Source: an uncultured Eubacteriales bacterium
Lineage (GTDB): Bacteria > Bacillota > Clostridia > Christensenellales > CAG-138
DNA: 64,000 bases
Assembly (NCBI GenBank): GCA_902801845.1
Contig: CADCJW010000010.1
Coordinates: 19-64,018 of the forward strand
Direction of reading: 5' to 3'
The notes below the pieces were generated by a model. The model ran no database searches. It was not told the origin of the DNA and saw only the letters and a program-made list of their open reading frames with translations. A program made the position numbers and the translations under genes. Numbering within the stretch: position 1 is the first letter of the stretch; every line of letters begins with the position of its first letter. Of this stretch, positions 5,631 through 32,092 are shown one piece after another.

Positions 5631-6797
5631 TCAATCGTAGTAGATGCGATCGGCCGGTGCGGTAGCGGGATCGTAGTAGTAGGGCGCCAGGCTCTTGCAC
5701 ATATCCTCATAGGAGGGGATCCCTTCCACCTGGATGGTCTGGGTGGGATTGATCATATTGTTCCACTCGATGGTCTTGAGGATCGTGGTGATATGGCGGG
5801 CCACCCGCTTTTCGATGGGCCAGCCGTTTTCATCGATGGGCGCGTAGAGGAGCTTGTGCTCCCCGGCCATCATGACGAAACGATCCTTGCCCTCCATGAG
5901 CAAAGCCTCGTCCGTGATGCCGCGGATACGGTCCAGCATGGGCTCGGCCACCTCGAAGGTGTAGGGCACGCAGTCAGACCAGTCGCCGATCTCCCGATGG
6001 CTCAAGCCGTGCAGGGCCTCCGGCGAGTAGTTGCAGGTGATGGCCACGTCGAAGGGAGAAGCGGTCAAATCCATGGACACCATGGAGCCCACGACCTCGC
6101 CCCGCTGATGGAACACGATGGTGTTCTCCACGGAGTACTCCAGTTCCGCCTCGTGCAGGTCGATGGCAAGATCGATATGCTCCTGCTGGATCATCTGCAT
6201 GGCCGCGTAGTTGGTGCGCTCGGTCATGAGGCCGTTGGCCTTGCCGGGCCAGGTACGGTTGATGTTCCGCACGTCCACGTTGGCCAGGTTCTGTCCGCTG
6301 GGATAGTGGATATAGACCTCGGGATCGGGCCAGGAATCCAGCTGGTTGCCGGCTCTGTCGCCGAAGCGCCACTTCATGTTGCCCCATCCGCAGTCATAGG
6401 TGAAGAACCGGGGATAGGCTTCGCCCACACGGGTGTTGGTGGAGGCGCTGGTGTTCAGGCTGTCGATGATGAACACCCGGCCCTGGGTAACCTTCAGATT
6501 TTCCACCAGCAGCTGGCAGGCCATGATGCCCACGGGCTCCTCGGGATGGCTGCGGCCCCAGATCAGGATGGTTCCGCCGGGAACACCGCTGTCGAAGATA
6601 TACACGTTGCAGTCGTTCACGGTGCCCTTGATCACATCGCTGTAATCGGAGAGCTTCTTGACCTCCGTGATGTACTCGCTGACGACCACCGGCTCCTTAT
6701 AGGTCCGGTGCTCCCGGAACATGTATCCGGCGATGGCCATCATGACGATCGCCAGGGCCACGGCTACGATTTTAATGATGGTAGTTTTGTTTTTCAT
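5631..6797 (-). CDS. Membrane-anchored zinc peptidase/deacylase of the M14 / succinylglutamate desuccinylase-aspartoacylase (AstE/AspA) type
   Basis: N-terminal TM helix (IIKIVAVALAIVMMAIAGY). The motifs 'IWGRSHPEEPVG' and 'DLHEAE' fit this family. A GGAGG SD precedes the start. Confidence 0.65.
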   Translation of the reverse strand: MKNKTTIIKIVAVALAIVMMAIAGYMFREHRTYKEPVVVSEYITEVKKLSDYSDVIKGTVNDCNVYIFDSGVPGGTILIWGRSHPEEPVGIMACQLLVENLKVTQGRVFIIDSLNTSASTNTRVGEAYPRFFTYDCGWGNMKWRFGDRAGNQLDSWPDPEVYIHYPSGQNLANVDVRNINRTWPGKANGLMTERTNYAAMQMIQQEHIDLAIDLHEAELEYSVENTIVFHQRGEVVGSMVSMDLTASPFDVAITCNYSPEALHGLSHREIGDWSDCVPYTFEVAEPMLDRIRGITDEALLMEGKDRFVMMAGEHKLLYAPIDENGWPIEKRVARHITTILKTIEWNNMINPTQTIQVEGIPSYEDMCKSLAPYYYDPATAPADRIYYD

Positions 6798-24847: not shown

Positions 24848-25894
24848 ATGATCATGAGAAAGCTATGCGTGCTGCTGGGCCTGCTCGTCGCGGCGGGCTG
24901 TATGCCCTTTCATGCGGCGGCCGCCCAGGAGGGGGTGGCGCTGCCCATCCTCATGTACCACAGCGTGCTGAAGGACCCCAAGCGGACGGGCCTGTACGTG
25001 GTGACCCCGGATCGGCTCCGGGAGGACCTTCTGTACCTAAAAGCAAAGGGGTACGTCACCGTCACGGCGGCGGACCTGACGGCCTACGTCCAGGGCGGAG
25101 CGCTGCCCGAAAAGCCGGTGATGATCACCTTTGACGACGGCCATTACAACAACCTGACCTATGCCCTGCCCCTGCTGCAGGAGCTGGGCATGGAGGCGGT
25201 CATCTCTGTGGTGGGCCGATACACAAAGGAATACAGCGACCACCCGGACCCCAATCCCAACTACGCCTATCTTTCCTGGGCGGACATCTCCGCCCTGACG
25301 GACTCCGGCCATGTGGAGATCGGCAGCCATTCCTTCGACATGCACCGGCAGAGCCCCCGCATGGGCAGCGACCGGATGCGGGGCGAGGACGAAGCGTCCT
25401 ACCAGGCCGCCTTCCTGGCCGACACCCGGCGGCTCCAGGATATGCTGGAGGAGAAGTGCGGCTTTTCGCCCATCGTCTACGCCTATCCCTTCGGGGCCGT
25501 GGGCCGGGGGACGGCCGACATGCTTCGGGAGCTGGGCTTTGCCTGCTCCCTCACCTGCCGGGAGAAGGTGAACCGGATCCGCCGGGACCCGGACAGCCTC
25601 TTCTCCCTGGGGCGCTTCAACCGACCGGGGGACATGACCACGGAAGCGTTCATGGAAAAACTGGGGGTTGCAATTTCGAAAACAGCTGATATAATAGTCC
25701 ACAATGACAGCAAGGCTGTGATGGAAAGAGTAGACGGCGCAGGGCCTTTCAGAGAGCATCCGGCAGGTGAAAGGATGTGGCGAACGCCGAGCGAAGTACA
25801 TTCCGGAGCCGCTTCCCTGAACCTGAGTAGGGGGAGACGGGTGCGCCCGATACAGCGTCCAAGGAGAAGCGTCCGCCCGCGTGGCGTCGCTTGA
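24848..25894 (+). CDS. Polysaccharide deacetylase (NodB-type), exported; the C-terminal ~75 codons run through the tyrS promoter and T-box leader
   Basis: 'LPILMYHSV', 'VMITFDDGHYNN' and 'IGSHSFDMH'. The recognisable domain ends near 'FMEKLG' (about 25665), but the first in-frame stop is at 25892-25894. Confidence 0.75.
   Translation: MIMRKLCVLLGLLVAAGCMPFHAAAAQEGVALPILMYHSVLKDPKRTGLYVVTPDRLREDLLYLKAKGYVTVTAADLTAYVQGGALPEKPVMITFDDGHYNNLTYALPLLQELGMEAVISVVGRYTKEYSDHPDPNPNYAYLSWADISALTDSGHVEIGSHSFDMHRQSPRMGSDRMRGEDEASYQAAFLADTRRLQDMLEEKCGFSPIVYAYPFGAVGRGTADMLRELGFACSLTCREKVNRIRRDPDSLFSLGRFNRPGDMTTEAFMEKLGVAISKTADIIVHNDSKAVMERVDGAGPFREHPAGERMWRTPSEVHSGAASLNLSRGRRVRPIQRPRRSVRPRGVA
25668..25695 (+). 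promoter_or_regulatory. Promoter of the tyrS T-box leader
   Basis: TTGCAA, 16-nt spacer, TGaTATAAT (extended -10). Confidence 0.65.
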
Positions 25895-25950
25895 ATTGAG
25901 GTGGTACCACGGCTTAGGTCGTCCTCTGTTTTCGCAGAGGGCTTTTTTAT
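25700..25950 (+). promoter_or_regulatory. T-box riboswitch leader, tyrosine specifier (UAC)
   Basis: Stem I elements are AGAGTAG and GGTGAAA. The specifier-loop GAAGTACA places TAC at 25797-25799. The T-box sequence AATTGAGGTGGTACCACGG is at 25893-25911. The terminator is CCTCTG-ttttcg-CAGAGG followed by GCTTTTTT. Confidence 0.85.
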
Positions 25951-25969
25951 TACGACAGGAGGAAAGAAC

Positions 25970-27196
25970 ATGGGAATCTATGAGGAACTGAAGGAACGGG
26001 GCCTGCTGGCCCAGGTGACCAACGAGGACGAGATCCGCGAGATGGTGAACGCGGGCAAGGCCACCTTCTATATCGGCTTCGACTGTACGGCGGACAGTCT
26101 GACCGCGGGCCACTTCATGGCGCTGACGCTCATGAAGCGGCTGCAGATGGCGGGGAACAAGCCCATCGCCCTCATCGGCGGCGGCACCACCATGATCGGC
26201 GATCCCTCGGGCCGGACCGACATGCGCAAGATGCTGACCCGGGAGGACATCGACCACAACGCCGCCTGCTTCAAGCGGCAGATGGAGAAGTTCATCGAGT
26301 TTGGCGAGGGCAAGGCCATGATGGTGAACAACGCCGACTGGCTCCTGGGGCTCAACTACATCGAGCTTATCCGGGAGGTGGGTCCCTGCTTCTCCGTAAA
26401 CAACATGCTGCGGGCGGAGTGCTACAAGCAGCGCATGGAGAAGGGGCTCTCCTTCCTGGAGTTCAACTACATGATCATGCAGAGCTACGACTTCTACTAC
26501 CTGTTCCAGCACTACGGCTGCAACATGCAGTTCGGCGGCGACGACCAGTGGTCCAACATGCTGGGCGGCACGGAGCTCATCCGCAAGAAGCTGGGCAAGG
26601 ACGCTCACGCCATGACCATCACCCTTCTCACCGACTCCCAGGGGCACAAGATGGGCAAGACCGCCGGCAACGCCGTGTGGCTGGACCCCAACAAGACCAG
26701 CCCCTTCGAGTTCTACCAGTACTGGCGGAACGTGGGCGACGCGGACGTGATGAAGTGCATCCGCATGCTCACCTTCCTGCCCCTCGATACCATCCGGGAG
26801 ATGGACGGCTGGCCTGACGAGCGGATCAACGAGAAGAAGGAGATCCTGGCCTTCGAGCTCACCGCTTTGGTCCACGGCCGGGAGGAGGCCGAAAAGGCCC
26901 AGTCCGCCGCCCGGGCCCTGTTCTCCGGGGAGGGGGACGAGTCCAGCATGCCCACCACCTGCCTGTGCTGCGAGCAGGTGCCGGAGGAGGGCATCAACAT
27001 CATCGACCTCATGGTCTGCTGCGGTCTGGTGAAGAGCCGGGGCGAAGCAAGGCGGCTCATCGAGCAGGGCGGCGTAAAGGTGGACGGGGAAAAGGTCACC
27101 TCCACCTACGCCATCGTCTCCCGGGAGCAGCTCTGCGCCGGGGCCAAGGTCAAGTACGGCAAGAAGGCCTTCCACAAGGCCCTGCTGAAGATGTGA
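25970..27196 (+). CDS. tyrS: Tyrosine--tRNA ligase
   Basis: I moved the start to ATG 25970 (SD AGGAGGAAAG), giving MGIYEELKERGLLAQV. The HIGH-type motif is 'TAGH', the KMSKS-type motif is 'KMGKT', and the C-terminus is an S4-like domain. Confidence 0.92.
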   Translation: MGIYEELKERGLLAQVTNEDEIREMVNAGKATFYIGFDCTADSLTAGHFMALTLMKRLQMAGNKPIALIGGGTTMIGDPSGRTDMRKMLTREDIDHNAACFKRQMEKFIEFGEGKAMMVNNADWLLGLNYIELIREVGPCFSVNNMLRAECYKQRMEKGLSFLEFNYMIMQSYDFYYLFQHYGCNMQFGGDDQWSNMLGGTELIRKKLGKDAHAMTITLLTDSQGHKMGKTAGNAVWLDPNKTSPFEFYQYWRNVGDADVMKCIRMLTFLPLDTIREMDGWPDERINEKKEILAFELTALVHGREEAEKAQSAARALFSGEGDESSMPTTCLCCEQVPEEGINIIDLMVCCGLVKSRGEARRLIEQGGVKVDGEKVTSTYAIVSREQLCAGAKVKYGKKAFHKALLKM

Positions 27197-27374: not shown

Positions 27375-28752
27375 ATGACCAAGGGCACCATAAAAAACCT
27401 GCTTTCCCGTCGGGATGTGGACATGACCAGCGGCAACGTGTACGGCCTGCTGATCCGGTTCGCCGTGCCGCTGCTTTTGGGGAATCTGTTCCAACAATTA
27501 TATAACACCGTGGACACCTGGGTGGTGGGCAACTACGTAGGGAAGGAGGCCTTCTCCGCCGTGGGCACCGTGACCCCTATCCTTAACATGCTCATCGGCT
27601 TCTTCATGGGCCTGTCCACCGGCGCGGGCGTGGTCATCTCCCAGTATTACGGAGCCAAGCAGGAGGAAAAGGTCAGCGACACGGTCAATACGGCCCTGGT
27701 CATGACCGCCATTTTGGGCGTGCTGTTCACGGCCATCGGCGTGGGCATGACGCCGCTGATGCTTCGGTTCATGAAGACCCCGGCGGAGGTGTTCTCCGAG
27801 GCCCGGACCTATCTTACCATCTACTTCTCCGGCATCTTCGGGCTCATGCTCTACAACATGGGCGCAGGGATCCTCCGGGCGGTGGGCGACTCCCAGCGGC
27901 CCTTCTATTTCCTGGTTTTGTCCGCATCGCTGAACATCGTGCTGGATCTTTTGTTCGTCCTCGCCTTCCATATGGGCGTGGCGGGCGTGGCCTATGCCAC
28001 CATCCTTTCCCAGGGCATTTCAGCGCTGCTGGTGCTCCTGGTGCTCGTCCGATCCAGCAACTGCTGCAAGGTGCATGTGCGGAAGCTGAAGCTCCACTGG
28101 GCCGTGCTCAAGAAGATCGTCCGGGTGGGCATCCCCGCCGCTATCCAGATGGCCATCACCGCCTTTTCCAACGTGTTCGTCCAGTCCTACATCAACTTTT
28201 TTCGGTGCGGACTGCATGGGCGGCTGGACCGCCTACGCCAAGATCGACGCCTTTCTGTTTTTGCCCATGCAGAGCGTGTCCATGGGCGCAACCACCTTCG
28301 TGGGGCAGAATCTGGGCATGAACGACGTGCCGCGGGCCCGGCAAGGGGTGGGCGCGGCCCTCAAGATCTCGGCATTGATCACCGTGTGCCTCATGGCGCC
28401 GGTGGTGGCCTTCGCGCCCCATCTGGTCCGCTTCTTCAACGATTCGCCCGAGGTGGTCCGCTTCGGCACCCTGTTTCTCCGGCTCATGTCCCCCTTCTAC
28501 GTGCTCTGCTGCGTGAACCAGATCCTGGCCGGGTCCCTTCGCGGCGCCGGGGACAGCCGGGCGCCCATGTTCATCATGCTGTTCAGCTTCGTCCTGTTCC
28601 GGCAGATTTATCTCTACCTCATGACCCATTTCGTGGCCAACACCATCGTGGTGGTGGCCCTGGGCTACCCGGCGGGCTGGCTGGTGTGCAGCACCGTCAC
28701 CTACCTCTACTTCCGCTTCGCCCACTGGGAGAAGCACCGGATCGTCGAATAA
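27375..28752 (+). pseudogene. MATE family efflux transporter interrupted by a +1 frameshift at about 28203
   Basis: ORF 27375-28775 is MATE-like up to '...VQSYINFF', then becomes an Arg/Gly-rich out-of-frame tail. The +1 frame continues with 'GADCMGGWTAYAKIDAFLFLPMQ...' to 28752. The junction is TTTTTT-C-GGTGCGGAC. Confidence 0.8.
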
Positions 28753-28771
28753 GCTTTCAGGGAGATCGGAT

Positions 28772-29473
28772 ATGAAAAAGCCTTTGATCCTGGTCACGGT
28801 CAGCACGGAGCGCATGGACGACACGCCCATCGTGCGGCTGAACCGGGAGTACGTGAACGCCATCGTGGCGGCCGGCGGCGTGCCGGTGCCCGTGAGCCAT
28901 CGGTTCGGCATGGACGAGCTCGTGGATCTGGCGGACGGGCTCTTGCTCAGCGGCGGCGTGGACGTGGACCCGGTCCGCTTCGGACAGAAGAAGCTGAACG
29001 ATTCCGTCTGCATCGACGCAGATCGGGACGAGCTGGAGCTGGAGCTCATCGAAAAATATTGGCGGACGGGCAAGCCCGCCCTGGCCATCTGTCGGGGGCT
29101 TCAGGTGCTGAACGTGGCCTTCGGCGGCACCCTCGTCCAGGATATCCCCACCTGGTGCGGGGCGAACCATACCCAAACGGACCACCCGGTGCAGGTGGCC
29201 GCGGGGAGCCTCCTTCGCACCCTCACGCAAAAAGACACCCTGCAGGTGAACAGCTATCACCACCAGTGTGTCCCTTGGGGCGGCCTTGCCGCCGGCTTTG
29301 TCCCCACCGCCACCTGGACCGGCAACGGCGTCACCATGATCGAGGCCTTCGAGCAGCCCGGCTACCCTCTGCTGGCCGTCCAGTGGCACCCGGAGCGGGC
29401 CTACCGGGACCCCCACGGGCTCACGAACATGGACCCCCTCTTTCGCTGGCTGGTGGAAAAGGCGAGAGACTGA
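28772..29473 (+). CDS. Class I glutamine amidotransferase-like gamma-glutamyl hydrolase (peptidase C26 / PuuD-like)
   Basis: 'LAICRGLQVLNVAFGG' (nucleophile elbow), 'SYHHQ' and 'AVQWHPE'. Confidence 0.8.
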   Translation: MKKPLILVTVSTERMDDTPIVRLNREYVNAIVAAGGVPVPVSHRFGMDELVDLADGLLLSGGVDVDPVRFGQKKLNDSVCIDADRDELELELIEKYWRTGKPALAICRGLQVLNVAFGGTLVQDIPTWCGANHTQTDHPVQVAAGSLLRTLTQKDTLQVNSYHHQCVPWGGLAAGFVPTATWTGNGVTMIEAFEQPGYPLLAVQWHPERAYRDPHGLTNMDPLFRWLVEKARD

Positions 29474-29532: not shown

Positions 29533-31095
29533 TTATTTGCCCAAATTGTCCGTGATGTCCACGGTCCGATGCTCCTGGTAGGCGGAGAACATGTCCTCCA
29601 CGTGGACCGGCCGGAAGCGGCGGGCGAATAGATCCACCAGGGGCACCAGGATGAGGCCGCCCACCATGGCGATGACGCCGGAGTAGATGGAGTTTTTGAA
29701 CACGAAGGAAAGGAGCGGTCCGCGGACGGAAAGCGCGCCCAGGGAGATCAGAAGCTGCACCGTCTCCAGACCCACGCCCCAAAGGAAGCACACCGCGGCG
29801 GAAAGCTTGGTGGCCCGCTTGGAGTAGAGGCCGTAGAGGAAGGGGGCCAGGAACGCGCCCGCCAGCGCGCCCCAGCTGACGCCCATCATCTGGGCGATGA
29901 ACAGGCTCCTGGAGCGGGCCTGCTTGATGGCGATGAGGGCGGAGACGGCGATGAACAGGACCACGAACCCCCGCATGATGAGCAGCTGCCCCCGTTCCCG
30001 AAGGGGCTTTTTCTTATGGGGCGCGATGAGGTCCAGCGTCATGGTGGAGGCGGAGGTAAGGACCAGGCTGGACAAAGTGGACATGGACGCGGACAGCACC
30101 AGCACGATGACGATGCCGATGATCACCGCGGGCAGGGAGGAGAGCATCCGGGGCACGACGGCGTCGAATCCCTCCGCCCGGACGTCGATGTCATAGAGCC
30201 GGCCAAAGCCACCCAAGAAGTAGCAGCCCCCCGCCACCACCACGGCAAAGAGGGTGGAGATCACGGTGCCCTTCTGGATGGAGGCTTCGTTTTTGATGGC
30301 ATAGAATTTGCCCACCATCTGGGGGAGCCCCCAGGTGCCCAGGGAGGTCAGTATCACCACGAACAGCAGGAATATGGGGTCCGCCCCCAGGAAGGAGGCG
30401 TACTGCCAGCCGCCGGTGGGGCCGGTGGCCAGCCGTTCCATGGCGAGGGACAGGCCCCCGTTGTCCCCCAGGACCGCCGCGATGACCGCCACGATGCCGA
30501 AGAGCATGATGATGCCTTGGATAAAATCGTTCCAGGCCGTGGCCATGTACCCGCCCAGGATCACGTATATGCCGGTCAACACCGCCATGAGGAGCACGCA
30601 TACCGCGTAATCCACCCCGGGGAAGGCGATGGCGAAGAGCCGGGACAGGCCGTTATAGAGGGAGGCCGTGTAGGGGATCAAAAACACGAAGGTGATGAGG
30701 CTGGCCGCCGTGCGCAGCTTCGGGCTTTCGTACCGGGTGCCGAAAAAGTCGGGCATGGTCTTGCTGGAGAGGTGCTGGGTCATGATCCGGGTCCGGCGGC
30801 CCAAGATGAGCCAGGCCAGCAGGGACCCAATAAAGGCGTTGCCAAGGCCGATCCAGGTGGATGCCAGGCCGAAGTTCCAACCGAACTGGCCCGCGTAGCC
30901 CACGAAGATGACGGCGGAGAAATAGGAGGTTCCGTAGGCGAAGGCGGAGAGCCAGGGCCCCACCTGTCGGGAGCCCAAAACAAAGCCGTCGATATCCCCG
31001 GCATGGCGGCGGGCGCGCAGGCCGATCCACAGCATGATGGCGAAGAAGCAGACCATGAAGAGCAGGGTGATCAGGGAAGCGGAGTTCATACACAT
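29533..31095 (-). CDS. Sodium:solute symporter family (SSS) transporter
   Basis: Polytopic protein of 520 aa with an SSS-like N-terminus: 'GFVLGSRQVGPWLSAFAYGTSYFSAVIFVGYAGQFGW'. Substrate unknown. Confidence 0.8.
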   Translation of the reverse strand: MCMNSASLITLLFMVCFFAIMLWIGLRARRHAGDIDGFVLGSRQVGPWLSAFAYGTSYFSAVIFVGYAGQFGWNFGLASTWIGLGNAFIGSLLAWLILGRRTRIMTQHLSSKTMPDFFGTRYESPKLRTAASLITFVFLIPYTASLYNGLSRLFAIAFPGVDYAVCVLLMAVLTGIYVILGGYMATAWNDFIQGIIMLFGIVAVIAAVLGDNGGLSLAMERLATGPTGGWQYASFLGADPIFLLFVVILTSLGTWGLPQMVGKFYAIKNEASIQKGTVISTLFAVVVAGGCYFLGGFGRLYDIDVRAEGFDAVVPRMLSSLPAVIIGIVIVLVLSASMSTLSSLVLTSASTMTLDLIAPHKKKPLRERGQLLIMRGFVVLFIAVSALIAIKQARSRSLFIAQMMGVSWGALAGAFLAPFLYGLYSKRATKLSAAVCFLWGVGLETVQLLISLGALSVRGPLLSFVFKNSIYSGVIAMVGGLILVPLVDLFARRFRPVHVEDMFSAYQEHRTVDITDNLGK

Positions 31096-31117
31096 AGTTT
31101 CCTTTCGTCAAAATGGA

Positions 31118-31151
31118 CAAAAAAGAGCGTGGCACCGGCCCGGCGCCACGC
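31118..31151 (-). terminator. Leader terminator (attenuator 3:4 hairpin) upstream of the symporter
   Basis: Minus strand: GCGTGGCGCCG-ggc-CGGTGCCACGC followed by TCTTTTTTG. It lies about 20 nt before the symporter SD. Confidence 0.6.
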
Positions 31152-31173
31152 CCTCAGAACACGTTTCAAGGGA

Positions 31174-31254
31174 TCATGGGCACAGCCGACCGGCCTTGCT
31201 GCGGGCAGCAAAGCGGTAATAATAATACCGAGCTGTGCGGCGAACGGCGATCAT
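31174..31254 (-). CDS. Candidate leader peptide MIAVRRTARYYYYRFAARSKAGRLCP (four consecutive Tyr codons)
   Basis: The ATG is preceded by GGGAGGG, and there is an in-frame upstream ATG at 31266. TAT TAT TAT TAC occupies 31227-31216. The stop lies 22 nt before the terminator hairpin. Confidence 0.45.
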   Translation of the reverse strand: MIAVRRTARYYYYRFAARSKAGRLCP

Positions 31255-31283
31255 ATGCCCTCCCATGCCTTAAAAGTGTATAT

Positions 31284-31312
31284 AATTTACCACTTAAGGG
31301 GGCCTCTGTCAA
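31284..31312 (-). promoter_or_regulatory. Promoter of the symporter leader
   Basis: Minus strand: TTGACA, 17-nt spacer, TAAATT. Confidence 0.5.
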
Positions 31313-31348
31313 GAAAAATATATGATTTGGTCTATCCAAGGGCGTCCG

Positions 31349-32092
31349 TTACGTGAACTCCCCCGTGTAGAGGCAGATGCGGCCGGAAAAGATGCCCGTC
31401 AAAGCTTCCACCAGCTCCTGCCGGGCGCCGTTAGACAGATCATAGACCTCCAGCCGGGCGGGGGCCATGCCCACCAGAAGGCTGATGAGCCCCTCGCCGG
31501 TCTCGTCCACGTACTCCATCCGGAGGGCCTCCCCGTCGGACAGGGAGCAAAGGCCGTCCCTATGGAGGCACAGCCGAAGGGCGGGGCATCGGGGCGGCCG
31601 CTCGTTCAGCAGCAGCCGCAGCACGTCCGCCGCCCGGGCGTATTCCTGTTCCAGCAGCAGCGCGGAGAAGGCCTCCTCCACGCAGAGCCGCCAGAAGAGG
31701 ACCGTCTCCTGCATCCGAAAGCGCAGGAACCCCTCCAGACACAGCTTCCCCTCCTCCTTCAGATAGGCGGTCAGCCGCTGTACCGTTTCGCTCAGGTCCT
31801 CCTTCTGCCGGGCCGCGTCCACCGCCCGGGCAAGGACCTGCCGCTTTTCGGGGAGTGGCAGGGGCGTCTCGTCCGTCATGGCCGCCACCTCGAAGGACAC
31901 CAGATCCTCCGTGATCAGCGTCCCCAGGGCCCGGGCAAGGGTCTCCAGCCCGTACCGCCCCTCCATGCGCACGCCCACGCCGCCCTGAGCCGCCAGCAGG
32001 GAAAAGGGCGCGCCGCCCTCCCGGAGCCGCCGATCCAGCAGCGCCTCCAGGTCCACATCATATTCCATTGTTTGAATGATCCAGGACGACAC
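31349..32092 (-). CDS. ytxC: Putative sporulation protein YtxC
   Basis: 'KLCLEGFLRFRMQE' is a YtxC-like motif. The GTG start at 32092 is supported by the SD GGAAGGAAG. Confidence 0.6.
   Translation of the reverse strand: MSSWIIQTMEYDVDLEALLDRRLREGGAPFSLLAAQGGVGVRMEGRYGLETLARALGTLITEDLVSFEVAAMTDETPLPLPEKRQVLARAVDAARQKEDLSETVQRLTAYLKEEGKLCLEGFLRFRMQETVLFWRLCVEEAFSALLLEQEYARAADVLRLLLNERPPRCPALRLCLHRDGLCSLSDGEALRMEYVDETGEGLISLLVGMAPARLEVYDLSNGARQELVEALTGIFSGRICLYTGEFT

Follow-up and report, generated by a model that had tools for sequence, protein, structure and literature searches.

What governs the gene of a sodium:solute symporter on the minus strand of contig CADCJW010000010.1 (assembly GCA_902801845.1) from an uncultured Eubacteriales bacterium? 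The stretch of this contig analysed here comprises 64,000 nucleotides and is named the window in the following. An earlier note, made from the letters alone, had noticed a candidate leader-peptide attenuator between a YtxC-like open reading frame (ORF) and the symporter gene, in which a run of four Tyr codons would sense tyrosine. Leader-peptide attenuation is a textbook mechanism of Proteobacteria; Firmicutes mostly use T-boxes, and to our knowledge only a handful of leader-peptide attenuators are known among them. The proposal is supported by two lines of evidence from orthologous symporter loci, namely a conserved aromatic codon run in their leaders and T-boxes with a UAC specifier. In our judgement the element of the window is likely to be a functional ribosome-mediated (leader-peptide) transcription attenuator that senses charged tRNA-Tyr.

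Organization of the leader region

A minus-strand reading of the intergenic region recovered all elements listed in the earlier note. Promoter, Shine-Dalgarno (SD) sequence, 26-codon ORF, Tyr run and the GCACAGC/GCTGTGC repeat were found exactly where it had placed them. All features of this section are located on the minus strand. The YtxC-like ORF (31349-32092), a weak match of 49 bits in a profile search, precedes the leader, and the regulated gene, which codes for a sodium:solute symporter family protein of 520 residues (29533-31095), follows it.

The sigma-70-type promoter TTGACA-17-TAAATT (31312-31284) possesses a TG extension and scores 10 of 12 matches. It is the only sigma-70-like site within the 900 nt between 30800 and 31700, where 0.2 sites are expected from shuffled sequences. 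The predicted transcription start is at about 31279-31277. The SD sequence GGGAGGG (31264-31258) is separated by 3 nt from the ATG at 31254, with which the leader ORF begins (31254-31174). The ORF consists of 26 codons plus stop (MIAVRRTARYYYYRFAARSKAGRLCP), and its TGA is at 31176-31174. The four regulatory Tyr codons UAU UAU UAU UAC occupy 31227-31216, and a Phe codon follows two codons further on. This is the sole small ORF with YYYY in the 64 kb of the window on both strands, and only 1 of 5000 dinucleotide shuffles of the 300-nt leader contained YYYY in any small ORF.

Region 1 (31259-31231) contains the core GCACAGC (31238-31232), which forms a perfect 7-nt inverted repeat with GCTGTGC at 31186-31180. 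Its extended 5' strand reaches from the SD sequence and the AUG to 3 nt before the Tyr run. Much of region 1, including the core, falls into the stretch assumed to be covered by a ribosome that pauses on the Tyr codons. Directly 3' of the run, both the inverted-repeat listing and the fold contain a hairpin, GCUUUGCUGC-CCGC-GCAGCAAGGC (31214-31193), whose 5' arm is inside the footprint of the stalled ribosome; it may be a pause hairpin or a part of region 1/2. Region 2 (AGGCCGGUCGGCUGUGCCCA, 31196-31177) has two possible partners, region 1 and the terminator's 5' arm. Since it ends at the stop codon of the leader, it would be covered by a ribosome residing there. In the minimum free energy (MFE) structure, the adjoining post-stop segment CCCAUGAUCCCUUGAAACGUGU (31180-31159) pairs with the 5' untranslated region (UTR; 31279-31261, ACACUUUUAAGGCAUGGGA) and thereby closes a long leader hairpin; in truncated folds it can pair with the terminator's GAGGGCGUGG instead.

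The intrinsic terminator (regions 3:4, 31155-31119) is present as had been claimed, but it is larger than the 31151-31127 originally assigned to it. Its stem of 15 base pairs, ten of which are G-C, extends with a 3-nt GGC loop over 31155-31123 and is followed by a U-tract at 31124-31119. The free energy of the hairpin is -27.5 kcal/mol. Taken together, the region comprises a promoter-proximal short ORF with an SD sequence, a run of regulatory codons and an intrinsic terminator ahead of the gene, which are three of the hallmarks of leader-peptide attenuators.

Recurrence of the design at orthologous loci

Orthologous loci were sampled by choosing the best 80 genome and the best 80 metagenome loci (L001-L160) out of more than 1100. 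Their symporters are 60-91% identical to that of the window. The hosts are almost all uncultured Clostridia from the rumen and from the gut of horse, pig, chicken and humans and belong to Oscillospiraceae, Acutalibacteraceae, Lachnospiraceae and other families. The comparison of upstream regions had been named beforehand as a way to refute the attenuator, and the element withstood it: the comparison brought to light runs of Tyr or aromatic codons which share the reading frame of a start codon and have a terminator behind them. Between promoter and symporter gene, a short ORF with such a run and a subsequent terminator was found at 12 other loci, namely L001, L006, L007, L011, L013, L015, L019, L081, L082, L086, L092 and L096. 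At these loci the symporters have 71-91% amino acid identity, and the GC content of the upstream regions varies between 36 and 57%.

According to their leaders, the loci can be arranged in three groups. Group A is closest to the window and has upstream regions of 53-57% GC; it comprises L001 (MKRSAYSYYYYCFAACKVHRPRL), L006 (...VYSYYYYRF...), L081, which is a close variant of L001, and L082 (MKRTGYCYYCYYYHFASSGKVRRSYS). Group B is AT-richer and contains L007 and L092 (both MRNELSIANVKKYYYFYFYPSCQMG), L011 (MNRVLSIAKYFYFYLSF...), L086 (MKTICGIAKYFWCWYYFTM...) and L096 (MKTLKTAANRYWFWFYFTM). Group C is made up of L013 (MNTSAFFARRYYYACPG), L015 (MNIFASERYYYSYVPTQYLRG) and L019 (MKRMTRIAYYGYYPTL). 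The runs seen in the orthologous leaders are YSYYYY, YCYYCYYY, YYYFYFY, YFYFY, YWFWFYF, YFWCWYYF, YYY, YYYSY and YYGYY, and such a Tyr or aromatic codon run is the sole feature common to the leader peptides. Between the three groups, no alignable similarity of nucleotides or peptides was found; what they share is the design and the in-frame run.

Within group A, conservation extends further. The promoter with its -35, -10 and ATATA elements is kept in L001, L006, L081 and L082, as is the hairpin just 3' of the run (GCUUUGC...GCAAAG). The TGA and the run ATTATTATTA(C/T) are likewise common to all leaders of the group. Both arms of the terminator differ among the window, L001 and L082, and their pairing is maintained.

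The enrichment of the run was quantified by counting small ORFs with at least three Tyr within five residues. They occur in 13 of 154 upstream regions in sense orientation, in one in antisense orientation, and in 1.25 +/- 1.04 after shuffling. A strong intrinsic terminator with a U-tract is present at all 12 distinct leader-bearing loci, and an SD-like purine tract is found about 3-9 nt before the start codon in 11 of 12; the window is included in both counts. The exception is L082, whose only SD-like tract is about 13 nt upstream. Furthermore, the module of ORF and terminator accompanies the symporter beside differing upstream genes, for example a gene for a Snf2 helicase (L019) or a TrpB-like gene (L011); in L013 and L015 the neighbours are still different ones.

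The composition of some runs deserves a separate remark. The leaders of L086 and L096 mix Tyr, Phe and Trp codons (YFWCWYYF and YWFWFYF, respectively), and those of L082 and L086 have Cys codons (UGC) interspersed. Some species may thus sense all three aromatic amino acids with one leader. The proportion of three UAU to one UAC in the window was also considered as a rare-codon argument. It was dropped, as this usage is ordinary for the genome (47% UAU in a crude set of ORFs).

T-boxes at the position of the leader

At L047, L074, L075 and L130, a T-box (RF00230) lies before the orthologous symporter gene, in the same position as the leader. The matches score 102-107 bits, the gathering score being 93. 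The specifier loops read GAA-UAC-A, GAA-UAC-G, GAA-UAC-C and GAA-UAC-A, respectively. Thus, the transporter is tied to tyrosyl-tRNA charging independently of the leader peptides. The element UACAUUCC of L047 and L130 is identical to that in the T-box of tyrS in the window (GAAG-UAC-A-UUCC).

The latter T-box, which the earlier note had correctly recognized as a Tyr (UAC) T-box, is located at 25709-25929 on the plus strand with 111 bits and the specifier GAAG-UAC-A. It precedes tyrS (25901-27196, plus strand; TIGR00234, 376 bits). The same genome therefore appears to sense the charging of tRNA-Tyr by two mechanisms about 4 kb apart. Judged by these sequences, the same gene would be induced in different species either via uncharged tRNA-Tyr and a T-box or via a Tyr or aromatic codon run in a leader ORF. 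An exchange of T-box and leader peptide at orthologous genes has been documented elsewhere (PMC2965389).

Alternative RNA structures

The pairings of region 2 were analysed by means of RNAduplex for 11 distinct leaders, and their significance was assessed with 400 dinucleotide shuffles of the region 2 segment. In all of them, the end of region 1 is 0-9 nt away from the codon run, the partner of region 2 in the 2:3 duplex is the 5' arm or the loop of the terminator, and the 1:2 and 2:3 uses of region 2 overlap by 11-27 nt. In the window, region 1 ends 3 nt before the run, the 1:2 duplex (-26.7 kcal/mol) is contained in the MFE structure, and the 2:3 duplex (-23.4 kcal/mol) shares 19 nt with the 1:2 partner.

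In L007, L011, L086 and L096, the 1:2 and 2:3 duplexes each beat the shuffles (z between -1.5 and -3.3), and at most one of 400 shuffles matched both. For L019, significance is reached by the 1:2 duplex (z = -3.06) and not by the 2:3 duplex on its own (z = -0.90); both were matched in two of 400 shuffles. For L013 and L015, the statistics do not support a defined antiterminator.

A further view of the process is given by folds that were truncated before the 3' arm of the terminator. When a ribosome mask is set at the Tyr codons, 13 of the 15 nt in the 5' arm of the window's terminator are paired upstream. When it is set at the stop codon, no nucleotide of the corresponding arm is paired in L011, L015 and L019. 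The truncated folds are clean in L007, L011, L015 and L019 and ambiguous for the GC-rich group A, owing to chance pairings of remote GC-rich segments.

Several observations weigh against an attenuator in the window. The design is used in only 13 of about 160 orthologue loci. The energies of the 1:2 and 2:3 duplexes of the window do not differ from those of shuffles (z = -0.96 and -0.17), and the same holds for the other GC-rich leaders, which are its relatives. The equilibrium MFE structure of full-length leaders always keeps the terminator, with a ribosome mask or without one. Antitermination would therefore have to be kinetic, and equilibrium folds of full-length leaders are uninformative in this respect, as terminators of such stability are always retained. 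The 5' UTR can pair with the post-stop segment, and this UTR lies beyond the stretch which a ribosome stalled on the Tyr run would cover; consequently, read-through may need a second, queued ribosome, or it may be leaky. The spacing between the SD sequence and the AUG of the leader is short (3-4 nt). Finally, if the specifiers of the four orthologous T-boxes are read in the +1 frame, they give the Thr codons ACA, ACG, ACC and ACA. This frame was judged less likely, because in all four cases the codon is followed by a U and not by the usual purine, and because UACAUUCC is identical to the tyrS T-box.

The arrangement of regions 1, 2 and 3 proposed in the earlier note is thus plausible, and its 1:2 pairing is part of the MFE structure. 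The folding energies that the note had suggested computing favour both duplexes in four AT-richer relatives, but they cannot be separated from chance in the window itself.

Proposed mechanism and competing explanations

From the arrangement of these elements we infer that the leader ORF is translated, which pairings form and when, and that the system responds to tyrosine. Transcription would start from the promoter at 31312-31284, and a ribosome would load on the leader ORF while RNA polymerase is approaching the terminator. If Tyr-tRNA is plentiful, the ribosome would reach the stop codon (31176-31174) and cover region 2; if it has already left, the long 1:2 hairpin would re-form. In either case the 15-bp terminator could fold, and transcription would stop before the symporter gene. 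If Tyr-tRNA is scarce, the ribosome would stall on UAU-UAU-UAU-UAC and mask region 1 as well as the 5' arm of the hairpin next to the run. This would leave region 2 available to the terminator's 5' arm as it emerges, and due to the resulting antiterminator the polymerase would read into the symporter gene. The pairing of the 5' UTR with the post-stop segment may represent a closed state which is adopted when no translation takes place and which would favour termination. For the family, this classical logic seems to have good support; for the window, where the exact pairings are predicted ones, it is plausible.

One might argue that the leader ORF is translated and senses tyrosine, but that its output does not follow the classical scheme of 1:2, 2:3 and 3:4 pairings. 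A paused ribosome could by its mere presence hinder or allow the folding of the terminator, with no defined antiterminator involved, or mRNA stability, access of Rho or translation of the symporter could mediate the effect. This alternative gains from the window, L013 and L015, where a defined antiterminator lacks statistical support, and from the distance between stop codon and terminator stem: it is only 18 nt in group A, so that the mere position of the ribosome could modulate folding. On the other hand, the ubiquity of a strong intrinsic terminator with a U-tract in the distinct leader-bearing loci argues for termination as the output. In L007, L011, L086 and L096, moreover, one and the same region 2 is complementary to both region 1 and region 3 to an extent far above chance; L019 is arranged alike, although its 2:3 duplex, taken singly, does not surpass the shuffles. 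The SD sequence of the symporter gene is not sequestered in the predicted folds. A non-classical output is therefore unlikely.

A second alternative dispenses with translation. The leader could be a structured RNA, i.e. a riboswitch for tyrosine or an aryl metabolite or the target of an RNA-binding attenuation protein similar to TRAP or PyrR; the U-A-Y triplets would then be a binding motif and the ORF incidental. Indeed, the leader is strongly structured: the fold of its 186 nt has -83.2 kcal/mol compared to -61.7 +/- 4.3 kcal/mol in shuffles (z = -4.99) and consists of a long imperfect hairpin followed by the terminator. Seen as RNA, the conserved run amounts to a U-rich repeat of triplets (UAU, UAC, UUU, UGG, UGC), and protein-mediated attenuation by TRAP or PyrR is common in Firmicutes. 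However, a fold that binds a ligand or a protein would be expected to conserve its shape or sequence. What is conserved across the three groups is only the in-frame aromatic run, the start codon (with an SD sequence in 11 of 12), the placement of the stop codon and the terminator. Substitutions within the run, from Y to F or W, stay aromatic, with Cys, Ser and Gly interspersed.

Known RNA families do not account for the leader either. All 4227 models of Rfam 15 were applied to the window at the gathering threshold and to 30900-31500 at a permissive E-value. At the gathering threshold no family matched the leader, and the only match in the window was the T-box of tyrS. In 30900-31500 there were just two matches, tfoR (15.7 bits) and Scr6106 (19.5 bits), both well under the threshold and driven by the terminator. 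Likewise, none of the leader-peptide leaders among 19 related loci was matched at the gathering threshold. A T-box was not detected in 30900-31500 even at E <= 10, and Stem I, specifier loop and T-box sequence are all missing from the symporter leader. A direct reading of the leader revealed no spaced (G/U)AG repeats as in a TRAP-type array, just the four contiguous UAY triplets; among the leaders, the runs have only 3-8 contiguous triplets without spacers, compared to the 9-11 repeats of TRAP targets, which are set apart by spacers of 2-3 nt. An untranslated RNA is for these reasons quite unlikely.

It is very improbable that ORF and hairpin are unrelated, such that the hairpin is an insulator or simply the terminator of the ytxC-like gene, the YYYY ORF arose by chance and the symporter gene is transcribed from another start point. 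In favour of this view, the terminator follows the ytxC-like stop codon (31349) by about 190 nt, no other terminator is found on the minus strand after this gene, and the alternative pairings of the window are no better than chance. Against it, the only promoter-like site is upstream of both ORF and terminator, their module travels with the symporter beside different upstream genes, YYYY arose by chance in 1 of 5000 shuffles, and the Tyr-rich small ORFs of the upstream regions show a sense to antisense enrichment of 13 to 1.

The symporter and its genomic neighbours

The symporter is clearly a homologue of the SSS family; by its profile scores it appears to be a divergent one and the equivalog of no characterised member. 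The match to TIGR00813 (TC 2.A.21) covers residues 38-438 with E = 1e-46 and 159.9 bits (cut-off 184). The scores for PutP (170 bits, cut-off 515) and PanF (144 bits, cut-off 328) are likewise below the curated cut-offs. In the window the gene is monocistronic, since the next downstream gene is on the opposite strand. There, a MATE efflux transporter and a class-I glutamine amidotransferase / gamma-glutamyl hydrolase-like protein are encoded (27375-29473, plus strand). Synteny is broken in comparison to the nearest relatives L001 and L006, which carry PaaK-like and TrpB-like genes downstream of the symporter gene. No ior, paaK, FadD-like or TrpB-like gene was found in the 64 kb of the window, so that the argument for an aryl acid given below is drawn entirely from orthology.

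Among the orthologous loci, the gene order FadD-like acyl-CoA ligase, symporter, IorA, IorB and PaaK-like phenylacetate-CoA ligase was seen in about 50 or more (about 60) of L001-L160. Examples are L024 (1292-7555), L004, L012, L017 and L025. IorA (TIGR03336, 722 bits) and IorB (NF005325, 269 bits) score above their cut-offs, and the PaaK-like ligase (TIGR02155, 524 bits) does not reach its cut-off of 646. About a dozen loci have the symporter gene between genes for a TrpB-like pyridoxal phosphate enzyme (NF009057, 677 bits) and a PaaK-like ligase. Both kinds of regulator are associated with such partners. In L011, L086 and L096, the leader peptide precedes a symporter-PaaK-like operon with gaps of 15-37 nt. 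In L075, the T-box precedes the genes of symporter, FadD-like ligase and IorA, and no terminator-like site was found between symporter and ligase genes. An unrelated ZMP/ZTP riboswitch (RF01750, 59.5 bits) is located in L007 at 6561-6641 (plus strand), about 2 kb downstream of the symporter and PaaK-like genes.

Based on its gene content, the cluster of FadD-like ligase, symporter, IorAB and PaaK-like ligase is a candidate operon for aryl-acid uptake and reductive carboxylation (or aromatic fermentation) in gut and rumen Clostridia. The symporter most likely brings in a source of tyrosine. The earlier note had suggested an importer of tyrosine or aromatic amino acids; the link to tyrosine is affirmed by the T-boxes, but an amino acid is perhaps not the best choice of cargo. 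Because of the conserved partners IorAB, PaaK-like and FadD-like ligases of the orthologues, an aryl-acetate such as 4-hydroxyphenylacetate seems at least as likely as tyrosine itself.

In the 1960s, Allison reportedly observed that rumen bacteria build aromatic amino acids from aryl-acetates. Several points favour an anabolic direction of the pathway. AMP-forming ligases activate acids, and induction at low charging of tRNA-Tyr suits supply, not catabolism. IOR is considered to work in reverse for biosynthesis in methanogens (cited in PMC13285125), and Phe is made from phenylacetate by rumen bacteria (PMC7356843). The symporter family could accordingly be pictured as the importer, and the Tyr or aromatic leaders and Tyr T-boxes as the regulators, of a salvage of aryl acids to aromatic amino acids in gut and rumen anaerobes. 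We regard this as a tentative reading, somewhat short of probable. Low charging of tRNA-Tyr (or of tRNA-Phe or tRNA-Trp) would induce the uptake of 4-hydroxyphenylacetate, phenylacetate or indoleacetate. The acid would be converted to its CoA ester by a PaaK-like or FadD-like ligase, reductive carboxylation by IorAB would lead to the aryl-pyruvate, and transamination would yield the amino acid. If this holds true, the element would be the first amino-acid-sensing leader peptide to control the scavenging of a precursor, and not de novo synthesis or amino acid uptake. The partnership with IorAB and aryl-acid CoA ligases would turn the old physiology of aryl-acetates in the rumen into a testable regulon at the level of genes. 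In any case, the leader offers a handle on an uncharacterised SSS transporter, whose cargo, whatever it is, would relieve tyrosine starvation.

Two other types of putative control element were noticed upstream of orthologous symporter genes. In L003, L084, L087, L088 and L089, where the symporter gene lies between TrpB-like and PaaK-like genes and the intergenic region has its own promoter, another conserved leader is found about 100-130 nt upstream of the symporter start (in L087 at about 1330-1460). It consists of an outer stem GAAUG:CAUUC around one or two GC-rich hairpins, and GAGUG:CACUC in L084 is a compensatory change. No U-tract, aromatic ORF or Rfam match was found in this leader, which is possibly an undescribed regulatory RNA in the same place upstream of the symporter gene. 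Loci with symporters of lower identity carry 2-5 copies of CTTTAAAG / ACTTTAA boxes, which overlap or flank the promoter upstream of the symporter gene (L018, L050, L053, L062, L063, L069, L071, L072, L078, L112, L119, L122-L127 and others). Often, these loci are divergons with iorA and the gene of a FadD-like ligase. The boxes resemble an operator for a DNA-binding regulator and would constitute a third mode of control in the symporter family.

Comparison with known attenuators

The element of the window is very probably a real and apparently undescribed member of the classical class of leader-peptide attenuators. In Rfam and in the literature searched, where absence is no proof, we found no account of a leader with a Tyr run, of an SSS transporter governed by a leader peptide, or of an ior/paaK cluster under a T-box or leader; the earlier note's view of an undescribed element agrees with this result.

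The closest models with regard to mechanism are pheL-pheA, pheM-pheST and trpL-trpEDCBA of E. coli. Like the window, they possess a short ORF preceded by an SD sequence, a run of codons for a single aromatic amino acid and a terminator upstream of the regulated gene, and their mutually exclusive hairpins have putative counterparts in the window. The expression of these E. coli systems rises when the cognate charged tRNA is scarce (PMC11802643, PMC3082878, PMC1183508). The closed state of 5' UTR and post-stop segment predicted for the window resembles superattenuation in trp. In contrast to the E. coli leaders, the window has Tyr codons, the host is a Firmicute of the class Clostridia, and a transporter takes the place of the biosynthetic enzymes or the tRNA synthetase as target. 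Its leader is not similar to theirs in sequence and matches no Rfam leader family.

A Gram-positive counterpart is aroR-aroF of Corynebacterium glutamicum, where a leader with Phe-Tyr-Phe precedes the gene of DAHP synthase. It responds to Phe and reportedly not to Tyr (Neshat et al. 2014, as summarised in PMC11802643). The aroR-aroF attenuator shares with the present family the mixed aromatic codons (compare YYYFYFY of L007, YWFWFYF of L096 and YFWCWYYF of L086), the Gram-positive host and the relation to aromatic supply. It differs from the element of the window, which is dominated by Tyr, occurs in Clostridia and would control an SSS symporter, accompanied in relatives by a PaaK-like ligase.

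In Firmicutes, a His leader of hisZ/hisS* in bacilli (PMC2965389) and a Leu-rich ilv leader of S. aureus (PMC5794164) are known. These two cases show that ribosome-mediated attenuation exists in Firmicutes and can replace a T-box at orthologous genes, as is seen here. The window differs from them in the amino acid, in the genes and in the lineage, which is Clostridia and not Bacilli, and there is no relation in sequence.

With the Tyr T-box (RF00230), finally, the leader would have in common the signal, i.e. the charging of tRNA-Tyr, the output, i.e. antitermination, and, as L047, L074, L075 and L130 demonstrate, even the gene family. In contrast to the leader peptide, the T-box binds uncharged tRNA directly and without translation, by means of Stem I, specifier loop and T-box sequence, all of which the symporter leader of the window lacks. 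A Tyr-specific leader that alternates with Tyr T-boxes at orthologous genes would thus be a clean natural example of the swapping of regulators.

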